41,549 nt of DNA from a virus (IMGVR_UViG_3300045988_081107:1-41549); one strand, 5' to 3'; positions 4,558-38,567 are shown, counted from the first letter of the stretch. The notes: generated from the sequence alone by a model not told the origin. Numbers and translations: made by a program.

Positions 4558-4590
4558 AAGGTGTCCACTGTGGACACCTTGTTTATTTTA
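4558..4590 (+). terminator. Intrinsic terminator built on the palindrome GGTGTCCACTGTGGACACC
   Basis: AAGGTGTCCAC-T-GTGGACACCTT (4558-4580) followed by GTTTATTTT. Confidence 0.75.
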
Positions 4591-18427: not shown

Positions 18428-18583
18428 GCAGACATTGACGGAAACGTGAATGACCTGCATCCTCATGACGAGACCCGGCGGGAAGCATAGCACAGGCTTT
18501 TGGAATCTTCCTGTGCTCAATGGATCACCGCGCCGTCCGCTTCAAGATCCAGCGGCGCACACAAAACAAAATCAAACCCGGCG

Positions 18584-18602
18584 GGTGTCCACTGTGGACA
18601 CC
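18584..18602. repeat. Second copy of the palindrome GGTGTCCACTGTGGACACC
   Basis: Identical to the 4560-4578 core. It has no T-run here and lies 10 nt upstream of a GGAAAGGAG RBS. Confidence 0.9.
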
Positions 18603-18621
18603 TTGGAAAGGAGTGCAATCC

Positions 18622-18840
18622 ATGCTTGAATTTTTCGGCAAACTGTTTTGGTCTATTGAAAAAAGCTGCGTGCTTGCACCTGTGTTCCGGGAAATTTTTC
18701 AAATAGCATTCAAAAGTAATTTTGTGTGCATCGTCTGGAGTATCGGTTTTCAGGCGAGCCACACAAAGCGTGAGCCGAGGGCAGAGATCGGAGGGCGCGG
18801 CTGTATGCAAGGGGCGCGGCCTGTTATCCGCGCAGATTAG
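18622..18840 (+). CDS. Hypothetical 72-aa protein
   Basis: The ATG lies 8 nt after AAAGGAG. A strong hairpin follows at 18879-18920. Confidence 0.4.
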   Translation: MLEFFGKLFWSIEKSCVLAPVFREIFQIAFKSNFVCIVWSIGFQASHTKREPRAEIGGRGCMQGARPVIRAD

Positions 18841-18931: not shown

Positions 18932-19004
18932 GCTGCGTTAGCTCAACCGGCAGAGCATCCGGCTCATAACCGGGTCGTTGCAGGTTCGATTCCTGCACGC
19001 GGCA
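18932..19004 (+). tRNA. tRNA with a CAT anticodon (Met elongator type, or Ile2 if lysidine-modified)
   Basis: Hand-folded 73-nt cloverleaf: acceptor GCTGCGT/ACGCGGC, D arm GCTC-AACCGGCA-GAGC, anticodon arm TCCGG-CTCATAA-CCGGG, T arm GCAGG-TTCGATT-CCTGC, discriminator A. No CCA is encoded. It lacks the initiator 3xGC anticodon stem. Confidence 0.85.
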
Positions 19005-19010
19005 TAATAT

Positions 19011-19086
19011 ATTCCCGTAGCTCAATTGGTAGAGCGCTGGTCTCCAAAACCAGAGGCTGCAGGCTCAGTCCCTGCCGGGAATGCCA
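19011..19086 (+). tRNA. tRNA-Trp (CCA anticodon) with a non-canonical T-loop
   Basis: 76-nt cloverleaf: acceptor ATTCCCG/CGGGAAT, D arm GCTC-AATTGGTA-GAGC, anticodon arm CTGGT-CTCCAAA-ACCAG, T arm GCAGG-CTCAGTC-CCTGC, discriminator G, CCA encoded. Confidence 0.8.
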
Positions 19087-19173
19087 GACACACACCCTAT
19101 GAGGGGGCGTCGCATGACTAACAAGACATCACATCCACGCGGCGGGGTGCCCATTGTGAACACATTACGATAT

Positions 19174-19319
19174 GCTGCCATAGCTTAGTGGGCTAGAGCG
19201 CTTTGCATCTGATACATGCAAGGTAACATTGGCGATACACACCACCCATGGCTCTGCGTTTAGCCAGCGCAGAAGTTAATGCGGTGTGGGCGTTGGTTCA
19301 AATCCAACTGGCAGCACCA
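19174..19319 (+). ncRNA. Aberrant 146-nt tRNA-like gene (GAT anticodon loop on an 8-bp stem, plus a 68-nt structured insertion in the variable region)
   Basis: The acceptor GCTGCCA/TGGCAGC pairs perfectly and is followed by A and CCA. The D arm is GCTT-AGTGGGCTA-GAGC and the T arm is GTTGG-TTCAAAT-CCAAC. The hairpin CTTTGCAT-CTGATAC-ATGCAAGG sits at 19201-19223. The insertion at 19224-19291 contains CACACC/GGTGTG and TCTGCG/CGCAGA helices. Confidence 0.55.
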
Positions 19320-19510
19320 GACGCGCACCCTTTGAGGGGGCGGCGCGAATAGCGGGGCATCTGGCCGCGAAAGTTCCGGATGCAGCAGCACTCCACCCGT
19401 TTACGTTGTCCGAGAAACTGAATGTATACTTGGAGTGCTGCTTATATTAACGTTTAGCTTGAAATAGCTTTAATTTTTAAATCTGGCTTTTGAAGTTTGG
19501 AGCGCGTGTC

Positions 19511-20134
19511 ATGGTTCTGCCAATGGAGAACACCGAAAAGATGATTTTTCCGGGCGTGGGTAAGTATGGAATCCCTGAAATCAAACCCGAAACGGATGTC
19601 CGCATAGACAGGTTGGAATGGATACCTGTCAACTATGCTATGACAGCAACTGACAAAAAAAGCAAGGGCGTGCACTTTTACAAGGACGATTACCAGTTTG
19701 AACGGTTCTGGAACTATCCGGATAAATATATCCCGATTTTGCAACAGTTTGGCGCGGTATGTTCGCCGGATTTTTCTTTGTACAGTGATATGCCGCTTGC
19801 GGTGCAGCTTTTTATGCATTACAAAAAGCACTGGCTTGCCGCATACTGGCAGGCGCACGGCATTCACGTTATCCCAACGCTTTGCTGGTGCGGAGAACAA
19901 AGCTATGACTGGTGCTTTGATGGCGAGCCCAGAAACGCCATCGTGAGCATTTCAAGCCACGGCACACAGTCTGACCTATACGAAGCGGAATGTTTTGCTA
20001 AGCACTGCCGTAAGGCACTGGAAGTGCTTCAACCGAGCAGTATCTTGTGGTATGGAAAATGCCCTGATGAATTTGACTGGAACGTTACCAAAATAAAACC
20101 ATTCCAATACGAAAGGAGACACTACCGTGAGTAA
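19511..20134 (+). CDS. DUF4417-like protein
   Basis: GVHFYKDDYQFERFW...CSPDFSLYSDMP...HYKKHWLAAYWQAHGIHVIPTLCW matches my recollection of the DUF4417 family. I placed the start at ATG 19511, after TGGAG. Confidence 0.6.
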   Translation: MVLPMENTEKMIFPGVGKYGIPEIKPETDVRIDRLEWIPVNYAMTATDKKSKGVHFYKDDYQFERFWNYPDKYIPILQQFGAVCSPDFSLYSDMPLAVQLFMHYKKHWLAAYWQAHGIHVIPTLCWCGEQSYDWCFDGEPRNAIVSISSHGTQSDLYEAECFAKHCRKALEVLQPSSILWYGKCPDEFDWNVTKIKPFQYERRHYRE

Positions 20135-28257: not shown

Positions 28258-28289
28258 CAGGGTGTCCACAGTGGACACCCTGCTTTTTT
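28258..28289 (+). terminator. Intrinsic terminator/attenuator built on the palindrome GGTGTCCACAGTGGACACC
   Basis: CAGGGTGTCCAC-A-GTGGACACCCTG (28258-28282) followed by CTTTTTTG. It lies just upstream of the major tail gene. Confidence 0.75.
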
Positions 28290-34790: not shown

Positions 34791-35036
34791 ATGACTATTG
34801 TGAAAAAAGATGGTTACTTATACCAGTGCACCGTGTGCCCGGATGGGCGCATAAAAAACGGAGGTTGGACGCTGAAAAGCGTCATCCCGAAAACGCTGCC
34901 GCCGGATCAGCTGCTTTTTGAGGATTTCCCGGCCAACAGCAACGGTGGCAATGACTATATCTGGGACGGGCAGAATTTGATTTTTGACCCGCTGCCGGAG
35001 GAAAGCGAGGAAGCAAATGCAGAAAATCAGGATTGA
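34791..35036 (+). CDS. Hypothetical small tail-module protein
   Basis: AAGGAG abuts ATG 34791, so GTG 34800 is the better-spaced start. About 78-81 aa. Confidence 0.55.
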   Translation: MTIVKKDGYLYQCTVCPDGRIKNGGWTLKSVIPKTLPPDQLLFEDFPANSNGGNDYIWDGQNLIFDPLPEESEEANAENQD

Positions 35037-37827
35037 TTTTGATAATCCCGGTCTGCCGAAGCACATCAGCGCGGTGGAGAACGACAGCCAGAGCCGTTTT
35101 TTTCAGGCAACGCTTTACGAAAACGGCAAGGCGTATACTGCGCCTGAAGGAGCTGCTTACAGCATCATGTACCGCGGCTTCGGCCCCCAAAATCAGGGCT
35201 GGTACGATACCATCAACGACGGTGCAGGCAAGCGTGCGGCGTGTGCCGTGTCCGGCAACGTGGTCACCTGCGAGATCGCACGTCAGGCACTGCAGGTGCC
35301 GGGTCATGTGAGCATCGTGCTCTGCGTGACGACCGGAAAAGGCTATATGATCAAGAGCTGGCCTATCGAGTGCGACTGCAAAAACGACCGCTACGACAGC
35401 ACTGCGGAGATCCAGAGCTTTTTTTATATCACGCAGGTCTCTAATGCGGACTGGAATCGGATAATTCAGGCGTTGGAAGAGCTTAAAAACACGATCGACC
35501 CCACCCTCTCCCTCTCCGGAAAGGCTGCGGATGCGGCGAAGGTGGGAGAGGCGGTCAATGCGGAGGCAACCAGAGCGAAGGCAGCCGAGGAGGAGAACGC
35601 AAAGGGGATTGGACAGCTAAAGGAAGATTTAGTTGACTTATCTCATGTGAGATTGCTTAACGGATTTGACAAAGATAATACTGAAATAAATAAATATTAC
35701 AATTCACAAGGTGTGTTATCAGCATCGAACGGATGGACTGCATCCTTATCTTATGCAAGAGTTGAACCAAGCAAATCATACCATGCTAAATCAATATACA
35801 ACTATGATTTGCAAGTCATAGCTGTATGGTATGATGGAGAGCGCAATTTTATAAAGCAAGAATCAAACACATCTTTCATATCTCCAGACAATGCGAAGTA
35901 CGCAAGAATTTGTTGCAACACAAATTATGTCGATGTTCTTGTGTTTGGAAGTTTTGATTCTATTTCTGAGTATTTAGAATTTGGCAATGAAACTGTATTA
36001 AATGATTCGGTTGCAACAGACAGAATTGATGAAGCCATTTTATCTTCACAAAACGAAGCTGATTATGCTTCTAATATCACTGATTTCTATTCTTCCGAAT
36101 TTATGAATATCATATTGAGAAATGGATTTGATAAGACCTCGGTTTTAAAAAATAAATTCCTCTATATAGATGGAAGCATAAAAGATTCAAGTGGTTGGGG
36201 TGTGAACGAAAGCTATATTCTAATCAAACCATCTGTAACATATAAAGCAATGTCATATTCTTTAGACGTTAAACGAAATGTAAAAGTAGCATGGTACGAC
36301 AAGTATAAGGGCTTTATCAGAGTAGATGAAAATGTTGATTTTATAGCACCTAACAATGCTAAATTTGCAAGGTTATGTTGTACATTGAATATCAGTGATA
36401 CATTTGTGTTTACAGAAAAAGAAAATTCATCGGGAGAATATCTGGAGTATGGTTATGAAAAAAGCATAGATGAATCTGTTAAAATTCCAATTAAACCAAT
36501 TAAATCTGAAGTAACATCTGTTAATGGAAAAAAAGGAGATGTTGTACTAACTTCAGAAGATATAGGAATTTCTTCCGATGTAGAAAAAGCTGTTACAGAT
36601 TATCTTAAAAAAAATAATATTATCTCTCCTAAATTAACTATTTCAAAAGTAGTTGCAAGAGGAGGAATTAAAAATTCATATTCTACACCTACATCTGATT
36701 ATGTTACATTCAAGGATATATATCCTGTTTTCGATGTTGGGAGTAATACCACTGGTGCTGTATATGCACTTGCAGAACATCTTGTAGGTGCAACAACACA
36801 GGCTGTATACAAAAGCATAGATGGCGGTGAACATTGGACAAAGATGGGTGATTTACAAATCGACCAAGCCAATGGAATTTGGTACAATTCTATATTTGTT
36901 GAACCGTTCCAAGAAACAATTTACACAATCAAAGTTACAAACGGATATAATGACCCACATCACAATTATATTGAAAGTTTCAACTCTAGCCTTACAAAAA
37001 TCGGCTCTATGGATATTGGTGTTGGTAGAATGTTATCTGGACTTCATAGTATGGATGCTTGTATCAGCAAGGACTACTCCAAACGAGTTGTTATATTTGG
37101 AGAATATGCTTTAGAAGATGCCAAAACTGTTAGAATGTGGAAAACAGTTGATAGAGGTGCAACATGGACAAAAGTTATGGAAAAACGAGCAAATAATGGT
37201 GTTGTATATAGTGGAGAAATAAGACATTTCCATGCTGTATGTTGTGACCCATATACATTTGATTGGTGGGCTTGTAGTGGTGATGGTGATAATCAGTGTA
37301 AAATTTGGAGAAGTCAAGACGATGGGGACACTTGGATGGAAATGTTTGCAAATGGTCAGCAGACAAGAACCTTACAATTTGTATTTGAGAAAGATTGTAT
37401 CTACTATGCAATGGACTCTACTACTGCATCGACCAGAAAGTTTACCAAGCTTTTCAAGATAAACAGGGAAGATATGTCCGTTGTAGAGGTTGCCGACATC
37501 AAAAACAATTTTGCTGTCTACAACATTACAAGGACTTATACACCTAATGGCTTGATTATTTGGGCTTGTAATGAAAACGTTGCAAGTGTTGACGCTGACT
37601 CCGTATGCATCCAGTTTTATGATTACGCAACTGGGACTATTAAGGATATTTACAATTATCCGTTCAATGGGATAAAAAATACTTACAGAGGTTTCCAAGC
37701 AGCATCAAGACGTCAAGACATGGAAAGTGGCAATATTTTCTTCATGCCTACACTTAACATTGGGCAGTCAGCATATGGTACGATGAACACTTGCTCACGA
37801 TATTTTAAGGCTAAAATTACAACATGA
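35017..37827 (+). CDS. Receptor-binding / tail fibre protein: BppU-like N-terminus, two tandem ~115-aa modules, C-terminal Asp-box (BNR) beta-propeller-like domain
   Basis: 936 aa; GAGGAAG RBS. The N-terminus IDFDNPGLPKHISAVENDSQSRFFQATLYENG is BppU-like. The paralogous modules span aa 212-325 and 366-481. The Asp-boxes are SIDGGEHW, TVDRGATW and SQDDGDTW. Confidence 0.85.
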   Translation: MQKIRIDFDNPGLPKHISAVENDSQSRFFQATLYENGKAYTAPEGAAYSIMYRGFGPQNQGWYDTINDGAGKRAACAVSGNVVTCEIARQALQVPGHVSIVLCVTTGKGYMIKSWPIECDCKNDRYDSTAEIQSFFYITQVSNADWNRIIQALEELKNTIDPTLSLSGKAADAAKVGEAVNAEATRAKAAEEENAKGIGQLKEDLVDLSHVRLLNGFDKDNTEINKYYNSQGVLSASNGWTASLSYARVEPSKSYHAKSIYNYDLQVIAVWYDGERNFIKQESNTSFISPDNAKYARICCNTNYVDVLVFGSFDSISEYLEFGNETVLNDSVATDRIDEAILSSQNEADYASNITDFYSSEFMNIILRNGFDKTSVLKNKFLYIDGSIKDSSGWGVNESYILIKPSVTYKAMSYSLDVKRNVKVAWYDKYKGFIRVDENVDFIAPNNAKFARLCCTLNISDTFVFTEKENSSGEYLEYGYEKSIDESVKIPIKPIKSEVTSVNGKKGDVVLTSEDIGISSDVEKAVTDYLKKNNIISPKLTISKVVARGGIKNSYSTPTSDYVTFKDIYPVFDVGSNTTGAVYALAEHLVGATTQAVYKSIDGGEHWTKMGDLQIDQANGIWYNSIFVEPFQETIYTIKVTNGYNDPHHNYIESFNSSLTKIGSMDIGVGRMLSGLHSMDACISKDYSKRVVIFGEYALEDAKTVRMWKTVDRGATWTKVMEKRANNGVVYSGEIRHFHAVCCDPYTFDWWACSGDGDNQCKIWRSQDDGDTWMEMFANGQQTRTLQFVFEKDCIYYAMDSTTASTRKFTKLFKINREDMSVVEVADIKNNFAVYNITRTYTPNGLIIWACNENVASVDADSVCIQFYDYATGTIKDIYNYPFNGIKNTYRGFQAASRRQDMESGNIFFMPTLNIGQSAYGTMNTCSRYFKAKITT

Positions 37828-37889
37828 TTAGTTAACTAAAGAGGGCTTTATTTGACTATTTACCAGCATAAAAAGAAAGGACTGATAAC

Positions 37890-38567
37890 ATGCTCCCTAT
37901 CATGGACGTTTCCCGCTGGCAGGGTAACATTGACTGGAACAAGGTCAAGGCAAGCGGCCTTGTCTCCGGCGTGATGCTGCGGGCGCTGGGCAACAGCGCA
38001 GAGGACAAGCCCAGCAAGCCGTACATCGACCCCACCTTTGAGCGCAATTACCGCGAGTGCCAGCGGCTGGGCATTCCCTGCGGCGTGTACTACTACTGTA
38101 AGGCAACCGGTACGGAAGAGGCTGACGCAGAGCTTGCCCTGCTGCGCAAGGTGCTGACCGGCAAGACAGTGCAGCTGCCCGTTGCGGTGGACATCGAGGA
38201 TACCTATGTGCAAGCGCCGCTCGACAAGCAGACCCTGACGGACCTTGCCGCCTATGCGCTTGCTACGGTGGAGCGCTGGGGCTTTTACGCCATGCTGTAC
38301 ACCGGGCTGTACTTTGGCCGTGATAACCTGTACATGGGCGGCGCGGCACTCAAGCCATACGATGTATGGCTTGCAGCCTACCGCAGCAAAAAGCCTGCGC
38401 CGGAATGGAGTTTCGGGCTGTGGCAGTACACCAGCAAGGGCAAGATTCCCGGCGTTGTGGACGCAATACCGGGCAAGATTTCCGGTGTTGACTTGTCTGT
38501 GCCCTACAAGGACTATGCTAAAATTATCGCAAAGAAGGGTCTGACCCGTCTTCGGGAGGGCAAATGA
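37890..38567 (+). CDS. Endolysin, GH25 muramidase
   Basis: MDVSRWQGNIDWNKVKASG...GVYYY...DIED matches the GH25 catalytic pattern; 225 aa. Confidence 0.9.
   Translation: MLPIMDVSRWQGNIDWNKVKASGLVSGVMLRALGNSAEDKPSKPYIDPTFERNYRECQRLGIPCGVYYYCKATGTEEADAELALLRKVLTGKTVQLPVAVDIEDTYVQAPLDKQTLTDLAAYALATVERWGFYAMLYTGLYFGRDNLYMGGAALKPYDVWLAAYRSKKPAPEWSFGLWQYTSKGKIPGVVDAIPGKISGVDLSVPYKDYAKIIAKKGLTRLREGK

Follow-up and report, generated by a model that had tools for sequence, protein, structure and literature searches.

What kind of RNA is encoded by a phage gene that has the acceptor, D and T arms of a transfer RNA (tRNA) and a 68-nt structured region between its anticodon-type helix and its T stem? The question is raised by a tRNA-like gene in IMGVR_UViG_3300045988_081107:1-41549, a stretch of viral DNA of 41,549 nt that we analysed as a whole and call the window. 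Known tRNAs fall into two architectural classes set by the variable region. At 68 nt in the window, and up to ~90 nt in one related lineage, the region lies outside the limits of both class I (4–5 nt) and class II (≤~21 nt). We show here that the locus is a genuine, conserved phage gene for a tRNA-bodied RNA, and that a fold of the insert into a one-pair mini-hairpin and a bent hairpin, joined by a 4-bp loop–loop helix, is well supported. The gene belongs to what is apparently an undescribed variant of tRNA, abundant in human-gut phages.

An earlier note, made from the sequence alone, had described a tRNA-like gene at 19174–19319 with canonical acceptor, D and T arms, an 8-bp helix in place of the anticodon stem and a 68-nt variable region (19224–19291). 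Sequence and coordinates matched this description (a 143-nt tRNA body plus CCA; Table 1), and the Rfam tRNA model RF00005 bears it out, matching 19174–19316 with 44.1 bits (gathering score 29, E 2.7e-06) while placing 84 nt at a spot where the model expects 15. Across all lineages of the family described below, RF00005 scores were 39–59 bits, which is above the gathering threshold. The note had also proposed Infernal/Rfam and ARAGORN as checks. ARAGORN left the gene uncalled, reporting only tRNA-Met(CAU) at 18932–19004 and tRNA-Trp(CCA) at 19011–19086 in the window, and its intron mode gave inconsistent anticodons and intron positions and was uninformative.

Table 1. Coordinates of the tRNA-like gene and its flanking elements, counted from the first nucleotide of the window.
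Feature	Position	Strand	Pairing or basis
Hairpin GUGUCCAC-N-GUGGACAC of the 5′ leader, degenerate copy with 3 mismatches	19147–19163	+	
Acceptor stem, 5′ strand GCUGCCA; presumed RNase P site before G19174	19174–19180	+	pairs with 19309–19315
D arm, GCUU / AGUGGGCUA / GAGC, with A14, G15, G18 and G19	19183–19199	+	Rfam alignment
Anticodon-type arm, 8-bp helix CTTTGCAT/ATGCAAGG (as RNA, CUUUGCAU/AUGCAAGG), 7-nt loop CUGAUAC at 19209–19215	19201–19223	+	
Variable-loop nucleotide 5′ of the module (linker)	19224–19224	+	
Invariant strand AACAUUGGCGAUA, forming the mini-hairpin; pair A19228–U19236 closes loop UUGGCGA (19229–19235)	19225–19237	+	
UGGC, 5′ strand of the 4-bp loop–loop (pseudoknot) helix	19230–19233	+	pairs with GCCA 19263–19266
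Long bent hairpin of the extra arm; basal stem CACACC/GGUGUG (19238–19243 / 19283–19288), internal loops	19238–19288	+	
Apical stem UCUGCG/CGCAGA of the long hairpin, with apical loop UUUAGCCAG (19259–19267)	19253–19258 / 19268–19273	+	
GCCA in the apical loop, 3′ strand of the loop–loop helix	19263–19266	+	covaries with 19233
Variable-loop nucleotides 3′ of the module, GGC; C19291 is position 48	19289–19291	+	Levitt partner of G15
T arm, GUUGG / UUCAAAU / CCAAC	19292–19308	+	Rfam alignment
Acceptor stem, 3′ strand UGGCAGC (19309–19315); discriminator A and encoded CCA (19316–19319)	19309–19319	+	
Conserved 3′ trailer: hairpins 19322–19347 and 19357–19383, terminator-like long stem 19384–19442, U-rich tail	19320–19450	+	

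When IMG/VR and public metagenomes were scanned with exact and degenerate patterns, tRNA genes bearing such an insert came up in 191 instances (94 unique sequences) on phage and metagenome contigs, most of them from human-gut assemblies. We defined the family by a tRNA body, the strand AAC(R)NUGGYGA(Y)AC, a hairpin with the apical sequence (U/C)ARCCA, the two pairings 4–12 (numbered within the strand) and UGGY:RCCA, and a score of at least 100 bits with a covariance model (R1) built from an unguided MAFFT alignment. Under R1, members scored 100–142 bits and ordinary tRNAs at most 48, the gap between being empty, and the window held exactly one member (125.3 bits). The copies fall into lineages A (the window and L001–L012; 8-bp anticodon helix), A′ (L013, L035, L041, L088, L114; a 10–12-nt loop in place of the 7-nt loop), B (the commonest, on >116 IMG/VR contigs), B2 (L170, L172, L173 and others; body as in B, with a different hairpin ~19 nt longer) and C (L040, L081, L100, L112; Lys-type body), with L079 and L082 as singletons, and nearly every helix differs in sequence between lineages. 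The elements always lie within phage tRNA clusters, typically ~90–170 nt 3′ of tRNA-Trp. Two scans of one genome each of 185,579 prokaryotic species gave 0 matches, the INPHARED phage collection matched only at ordinary tRNAs, and queries with lineages B and C found no cultured phage, the sole deposited record being an unannotated faecal contig (MT839005.1). A literature search found no description of the family, and a search of ~8.3 million papers for its diagnostic motif strings gave no match; it may conceivably figure, without a name, among the ~10,000 phage RNA candidates catalogued in PMC10690425. Pattern matches in a ribosomal protein S17 gene and in marine GTGGCGATAC repeats were set aside as spurious; the latter, on marine viral contigs L056, L059, L062, L065, L068, L070 and L073, consist of GTGGCGATAC repeated 3–4 times directly 5′ of a tRNA gene, and are unrelated to the family though the string GGCGATAC is common to both.

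The tRNA body is supported by covariation, which the earlier note had also named as a check on homologues and which proved favourable for cloverleaf, Levitt pair and insert alike. A structural alignment of 23 diverse sequences had standard pairs in 96.3% of cells, against 34–47% when the 3′ partners were slid, although hand-fitting of the alignment to the model inflates such pairing percentages and so counts against our reading. Both-side changes occurred in 29 of its 42 pairs, and the observed pairing values were reached by 0 of 500 shuffles. Independent of the hand-fitted alignment are the regular-expression counts, the RNAalifold result and the slid-register controls, in which pairing across helices fell to 0–58%. 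Among 102 unique curated family sequences, pairing reached 99.4% in the acceptor helix (both-side changes in 6/7 pairs), 99.8% in the D stem, 99.8% in the outer 5 bp of the anticodon helix (5/5 pairs) and 100% in the T stem (3 pairs). G15 (19188) covaries with C48 (19291) as a Levitt pair (G:C 16, A:U 85, other 1), and the tertiary signature of U8, A14, R15–Y48, G18G19 and the T loop is kept family-wide. With the cloverleaf helices 99–100% paired and the Levitt pair kept in 99%, the molecule therefore adopts the L shape of a tRNA.

The most conserved part of the gene lies in the insert, namely its first 13 nt, AACAUUGGYGAUA (19225–19237). Positions 4 and 12 of this strand were A:U in 96, G:C in 88 and G.U in 1 of the scorable instances (185 of the 191), with 0 mismatches and the same pattern in the 102 unique sequences, and their pair closes a 7-nt loop, UUGGYGA, which follows the pattern of an anticodon loop in having U as its second and a purine as its sixth nucleotide. 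The UGGY of this loop pairs over 4 bp with RCCA in the apical loop (UARCCA) of a ~50-nt hairpin. Only the Y:R pair of this helix varies (U:A 148, C:G 29, U.G 5, mismatches 3), the full path from U:A through U.G to C:G occurring within lineage B, and RNAalifold picked the helix unguided. The apical loop is UARCCA or a close variant in every lineage (CAACCA in B; UGAACCA in some B2 copies). The basal stem was 97% paired, with both-side changes in 7/9 pairs, and the apical stem 85% paired, with such changes in 6/6 pairs. The sequence of the hairpin is entirely different among A, B, B2, C, L079 and L082, while its layout of basal stem, internal loops and apical stem is constant; 13 + 6 nt of the arm have thus stayed invariant while all helices turned over. 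Both insert helices given by the earlier note (CACACC/GGTGTG and TCTGCG/CGCAGA) are present, so that its account holds for these and falls short in taking the insert as just two nested helices, the first 13 nt, to which it gave no structure, forming the mini-hairpin whose loop takes part in the loop–loop helix.

UGGY could in principle serve as a site for the NCCA end of its own or another tRNA, or as a primer-binding-like site. This was rejected, as position 12 covaries with position 4 and the discriminator shows no covariation with Y (A73 stands with UGGC in the window), so that the partner is the arm loop and not a tRNA 3′ end. A search of the phage genome for a base-pairing target of the invariant strand found none above chance. 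In one type-B copy (L200), AGUGAUG stands in place of the 3′ internal loop ACAUCCA and is exactly complementary to the 5′ internal loop; its bent hairpin becomes a continuous helix, which should prevent the loop–loop contact.

The module sits as a cassette in a variable loop of normal length. Linker and junction together come to 4–5 nt in most lineages (1+3 in A, 3+2 in B, 4+1 in C, 3+2 in L082; 4+2 in L079), which is the length of a class I variable loop. When the module was deleted in silico, ARAGORN called 33/33 distinct bodies as ordinary tRNAs, namely Ile-GAU or Thr-GGU (A), Lys-UUU (B and C), Thr-GGU (L082) and Ser-GCU (L079). To look for module-less alleles we used the 5′ half of the type-A and type-B bodies and left the rest unconstrained; all 15 type-A hits and all full-length hits among >116 type-B contigs carried the module, and one copy (L201) has an internal deletion. 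The module was never found outside a tRNA body, 45 extra loci being chance matches in coding sequence (AAC-ATT-GGT-GAT encodes N-I-G-D). As module-less alleles are absent, the module does not occur outside tRNAs and 13 + 6 nt are invariant, we consider the arm to be retained and not a passenger.

Several known RNAs resemble parts of this design. Class II tRNAs (Leu, Ser, bacterial Tyr), tRNA-Sec and allo-tRNAs (PMC5389517) likewise build an extra helix from the variable region and keep R15–Y48 and the elbow. Their arms are of 3–9 bp with a small loop and start right after position 44/45, whereas the arm of the family takes ~64 nt, begins with the 13-nt invariant strand and closes on itself by the loop–loop helix. 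The family also has the canonical 7/5 acceptor/T configuration in place of the 8/4, 9/3, 8/5 or 9/4 of Sec and allo-tRNAs, and so stands apart from these. Allo-tRNAs, which are present in phages and metagenomes, do have longer anticodon stems and may be regulatory (PMC5389517). The nearest analogue is provided by synthetic tRNAs with a functional hairpin grafted on the variable (V) arm (Mukai 2020, PMC7590224), in one of which an anticodon-arm mimic on the V arm recruits a protein. Those tRNAs are engineered and their partners known; the family has a natural anticodon-like loop, which is closed by a single pair and taken up by pairing with the apical loop of the same arm.

YrlA, the tRNA-like domain of transfer-messenger RNA (tmRNA) and the T4 RNAs likewise use a tRNA shape as a processing, stability or binding handle for a non-decoding RNA, and none has a sequence relation to the family. 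The tRNA cluster of phage T4 carries stable 'species 1/2' RNAs, a tRNA-cluster location like that of the family. YrlA is permuted, with an internal tRNA-like part, unlike the family; its model (RF02553) gave only 27.6 bits against a cut-off of 69, at 18959–19063 on the ordinary tRNAs. ARAGORN found no tmRNA, and the D and anticodon stems that tmRNA lacks are present here. T-box riboswitches grip the tRNA 3′ end by a 4-bp UGGN:NCCA helix, and the L15 loop of RNase P and flexizymes use GGU similarly. The loop–loop helix of the family is the same 4-bp UGGN:NCCA helix with only N:N covarying, and differs in having both strands within one RNA. Theta ribozymes (PMC10879173) likewise come from gut Caudoviricetes and join a pseudoknotted small RNA to a phage tRNA. 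They lie 3′ of the tRNA and have a nested double pseudoknot with a catalytic C, whereas the module lies inside the variable loop and has a different topology; a theta or other hepatitis delta virus (HDV)-like assignment was rejected on that topology, with no HDV-family match at E≤5. A group I intron was likewise rejected, as it needs an anticodon-loop site, >200 nt and a P1–P9 core, and the module has 64 nt, sits in the variable loop and gave no Rfam intron match. The earlier note's judgement that the insertion falls short of a group I intron in size and is too long for a class II arm is thus supported. Arm and flanks matched no known Rfam RNA family, including ribozymes, riboswitches, YrlA and tmRNA.

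Does the RNA decode? Of all parts of the molecule, the anticodon arm is under the least constraint in the lineage of the window, with an 8-bp helix, insertions and deletions and a GAU/GGU polymorphism, the near-identical copies in L010–L012 reading GGU where the window reads GAU. The inner 3 bp and the loop are specific to each lineage. Copies of A′ have a 10–12-nt loop without anticodon geometry on identical acceptor and T arms, and A33 replaces the near-universal U33 in lineages B and C (among them L081 and L112) and in L079, leaving canonical loops only in A, L082 and L100. Beyond position 72 the family is no longer conserved: its discriminator is variable, and lineages other than A and A′ do not encode CCA. 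The 5-bp anticodon stem, 7-nt loop, U33 and conserved anticodon of a tRNA are thus not found as a set, and as the variable region departs as well, we did not file the gene as an ordinary tRNA. The pattern would suit an RNA that needs the top half of a tRNA and the arm, and not the anticodon. We read type A as probably non-decoding because of its 8-bp stem, its GAU/GGU polymorphism and the 10–12-nt loops of A′.

Our favoured reading, to which we give a little less than an even chance, is that the type-A RNA is matured like a tRNA, keeps its arm and acts through the kissing-loop arm as a non-decoding tRNA look-alike, perhaps as a decoy for tRNases; a non-translational or mimic role had been among the options of the earlier note, and the loosely constrained anticodon arm of lineage A makes it the best reading. 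The RNA would be transcribed together with tRNA-Met and tRNA-Trp; no sigma-70-type promoter was found in the window just 5′ of the gene, which makes such co-transcription likely. We infer an RNase P cut before G19174, and the 3′ end would be trimmed to the encoded CCA at 19319, with the arm staying in a mature RNA of ~146 nt. The type-A molecule would no longer decode, its anticodon helix being 3 bp too long and its loop drifting. Its top half would be a handle for tRNA-processing and tRNA-binding factors, the body giving processing and stability, and the invariant kissing-loop arm would be the working surface that binds a partner. Clustering of 3,046 open reading frames (ORFs) from 93 loci gave no protein family common to lineages A, B and C (the top cluster was an antisense artefact over tRNAs), and no RNA-related domain was detected in the window's proteins; the partner is thus probably a host factor. 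Counter-defence is the most plausible use of such an RNA and the weakest step of the proposal: the partner might be a host factor that recognises tRNAs, and the RNA a decoy or shield in a small anti-tRNase kit of the phage. PrrC, PARIS and bacterial Schlafen proteins target tRNA-Lys(UUU) at its anticodon arm, and phage tRNAs are thought to escape those nucleases by anticodon-loop changes (PMC10264068, PMC11464382, PMC13056530). Among tRNAs, tRNA-Lys(UUU) is the one that immune anticodon nucleases attack by preference. The Lys(UUU)-like bodies of lineages B and C have an altered loop (A33), which, with the place of type B in the slot of a canonical tRNA-Lys (L010, L088), we take as context for a defence link only. 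Besides Met and Trp, these small phages have only RNAs with Lys, Ile or Thr bodies.

Several observations weigh against a non-decoding RNA. L100 has a perfect Lys loop (CUUUUAA) and L082 a Thr loop of canonical form; diverged copies of lineage C still share the UUU triplet, which suggests recognition by LysRS or decoding there; and type B occupies the slot that a canonical tRNA-Lys holds in sister phages (L010, L088). A large arm does not by itself rule out decoding, since engineered tRNAs with aptamers on a long variable arm remain active in translation (PMC7590224). The loops of L100 and L082, the slot of type B and the engineered tRNAs would fit a working tRNA of new architecture ('class III'), charged (in the window by IleRS) and used on the ribosome, whose arm would be an add-on for protection from host anticodon nucleases, selective charging or selective stability. 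The complete body with its conserved tertiary pairs and the canonical window loop CUGAUAC (C32, U33, purine 37) point the same way. We still regard a working tRNA as unlikely, since the 8-bp helix puts the anticodon 3 bp out of place with respect to the acceptor end, near-identical genes differ in GAU or GGU, A′ lacks a 7-nt loop, A33 recurs and the discriminator is unconserved; these GGU copies, A′ loops and overlong stem also speak against the Ile(GAU) decoder of the earlier note. Rather unlikely too is a broader form, in which the family is a third architectural class ('tRNA-plus') of charged, phage-private tRNAs or surrogates with a cis-acting arm, or in which the arm is a new catalytic or ligand-sensing fold. 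The arm could then be a tag for a dedicated factor, or a shield while host Lys, Thr and Ile tRNAs are destroyed.

The cassette-like placement of the module in a normal-length variable loop, the 33/33 ordinary tRNAs left by its deletion, the presence of the same cassette in bodies of different anticodon identity and the 13-nt strand as a possible recognition site would all suit an intervening sequence, removed by an endonuclease of phage or host and an RtcB-type ligase or by its own chemistry to leave an ordinary tRNA of ~78 nt. Against this stand the absence of intron-less alleles, a size far too small for group I or II introns, boundaries without a bulge–helix–bulge motif, no ribozyme family match even at E≤5, no linked endonuclease or ligase gene, exons that would form non-canonical tRNAs (8-bp stem, A33) and covariation along the whole arm, which exceeds what splice signals need. 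Nothing, then, favours the earlier note's suggestion of an intron-like insertion over a retained arm, and we hold splicing to be quite improbable. More doubtful again is a new small ribozyme or ligand-binding aptamer that controls the tRNA scaffold, either self-cleaving to tRNA halves or acting as a sensor that gates processing or charging. Invariant nucleotides around a pseudoknot are typical of a catalytic or ligand core, the neighbourhood is rich in small structured RNAs (among them RAGATH-33 in L112) and gut phages place theta ribozymes beside tRNAs (PMC10879173). Rfam, on the other hand, gave no ribozyme or riboswitch match, the topology of a 5′ strand pairing with a hairpin's apical loop is unlike HDV-like and theta folds (P1/P1.1 cannot be drawn), and a cut in the variable loop would break up the conserved tRNA body. 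The failure of ARAGORN to call the gene and its abnormal anticodon arm might finally suggest a degenerate tRNA pseudogene, an assembly artefact or a DNA-level element in a tRNA gene (att site, transposon end). Covariation effectively refutes this: the 191 copies come from independent assemblies, every helix shows compensatory substitutions and strand-specific G.U pairs, and the fold of the insert is under purifying selection. The ordinary ~76-nt tRNA that the earlier note would have expected in relatives of a pseudogene was found in none of them, the 15 type-A and all full-length type-B (>116) bodies carrying the module.

A phage family that combines a full tRNA body with a 64-nt pseudoknotted domain would extend what a tRNA can be. 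As ARAGORN misses these genes, its intron mode mis-assigns them and no Rfam family covers them, they are absent from phage tRNA censuses, including those that argue codon compensation versus anti-defence roles. Should the RNA prove to be a decoy or a nuclease-proof surrogate, it would add an RNA-based strategy to the conflict between phages and tRNases (PrrC, PARIS, Schlafen, VapC). The arm is also a compact natural module that tolerates grafting on different tRNA bodies, of a kind that engineers of aptamer-tagged tRNAs had to design.

The window derives from a temperate, siphovirus-type gut phage (integrase, SSB, ParA- and ParB-like proteins, terminase, portal, major head protein, tape measure, GH25 lysin), whose nearest cultured large terminase, at 43% identity, is that of a Clostridium scindens phage. 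Early genes flank the tRNA cluster on one side and packaging genes on the other. The three elements of the conserved 3′ trailer fold with z −2.15, −1.54 and −5.55, respectively; the trailer accompanies type-A copies in other contigs, and a compensatory change in it (GCAUCUGG/CCGGAUGC to and from GCAUCCGG/CUGGAUGC) was read directly from the sequences of relatives. Near-identical hairpins of the form GAC(R)C(R)CACCCU(W)UGAGGGGGCG(K)CGC come after the CCA at tRNA-Trp (19087–19115) and at the tRNA-like gene (19320–19347), and may be a 3′-processing signal; a theta or HDV-like ribozyme fold was rejected for the trailer hairpins, as the P1/P1.1 pairs are impossible. The third element (19384–19450) has a 12-bp terminator-like stem and a large loop with the conserved CCCGUUUACGU..GUCCGA..AACUGAAUGUA, a motif that recurs inside different stems in L001, L002, L004, L006, L009, L084, L091 and L123. 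Its place just 5′ of the packaging genes makes a DNA-level role (cos/pac) conceivable.

On the 5′ side, type-A genes in L003, L005, L007 and L010 have their own promoter and leader. A perfect copy of the leader hairpin stands directly 5′ of the type-A gene in L003, L005, L007, L008 and L010–L013. The 17-bp palindrome GTGTCCAC-N-GTGGACAC is perfect at 4561–4577, 18585–18601 and 28262–28278 and degenerate at 19147–19163, making four copies in the window against 0.14 expected. A dedicated operator was rejected, as the copies at 28262 and 4561 form the core of classic U-tract terminators, and the palindrome looks like a reused terminator or processing hairpin. A conserved leader of ~125 nt (18481–18604) contains two hairpins, one of them like the tRNA-Trp anticodon arm (CUUCAAGAUCC), and ends in the GUGUCCACUGUGGACAC hairpin; it stands directly 5′ of the type-A gene in L005, L007 and L010, and in the window it overlaps an unsupported 106-aa ORF (18520–18840) that is possibly no gene. 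At ~1700–1800 of L011, and in the same region of L012, the 5′ half of tRNA-Trp (to the anticodon loop) is fused to this leader element, which points to recombination among these RNA modules. At ~4000–4110 of L010, 5′ of the type-A gene, TGTCCGATTTGTCCGGAA occurs four times in tandem ahead of an extended −10 promoter (TGTGGTATAAT); the promoter would drive the leader and the tRNA-like gene, and the repeats look like regulator binding sites.

The RAGATH-33 motif class is defined by its association with small self-cleaving ribozymes, and an RNA of this class lies at L112:2368–2488 (127.6 bits, above the gathering score), ~230 nt 5′ of a family member. A slot ~100 nt 3′ of the type-A gene holds tRNA-Lys(UUU), tRNA-Lys(CUU) or a module-bearing type B, depending on the phage (L010:4551–4625, L088:1501–1577, L011:2090–2225), and is empty in the window. 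There, the first gene after the RNA cluster (19490–20134) encodes a DUF4417 protein (182 bits; PHROG 'nuclease'), in the position where L003 and L007 have an HNH endonuclease, immediately ahead of the genes for the small and large terminase. Farther downstream, GC content falls to 0.36 at 36001–38000, against ~0.53 elsewhere, within a 947-aa ORF of the tail region (34984–37827), and this low-GC segment is probably a horizontally exchanged receptor-binding segment.

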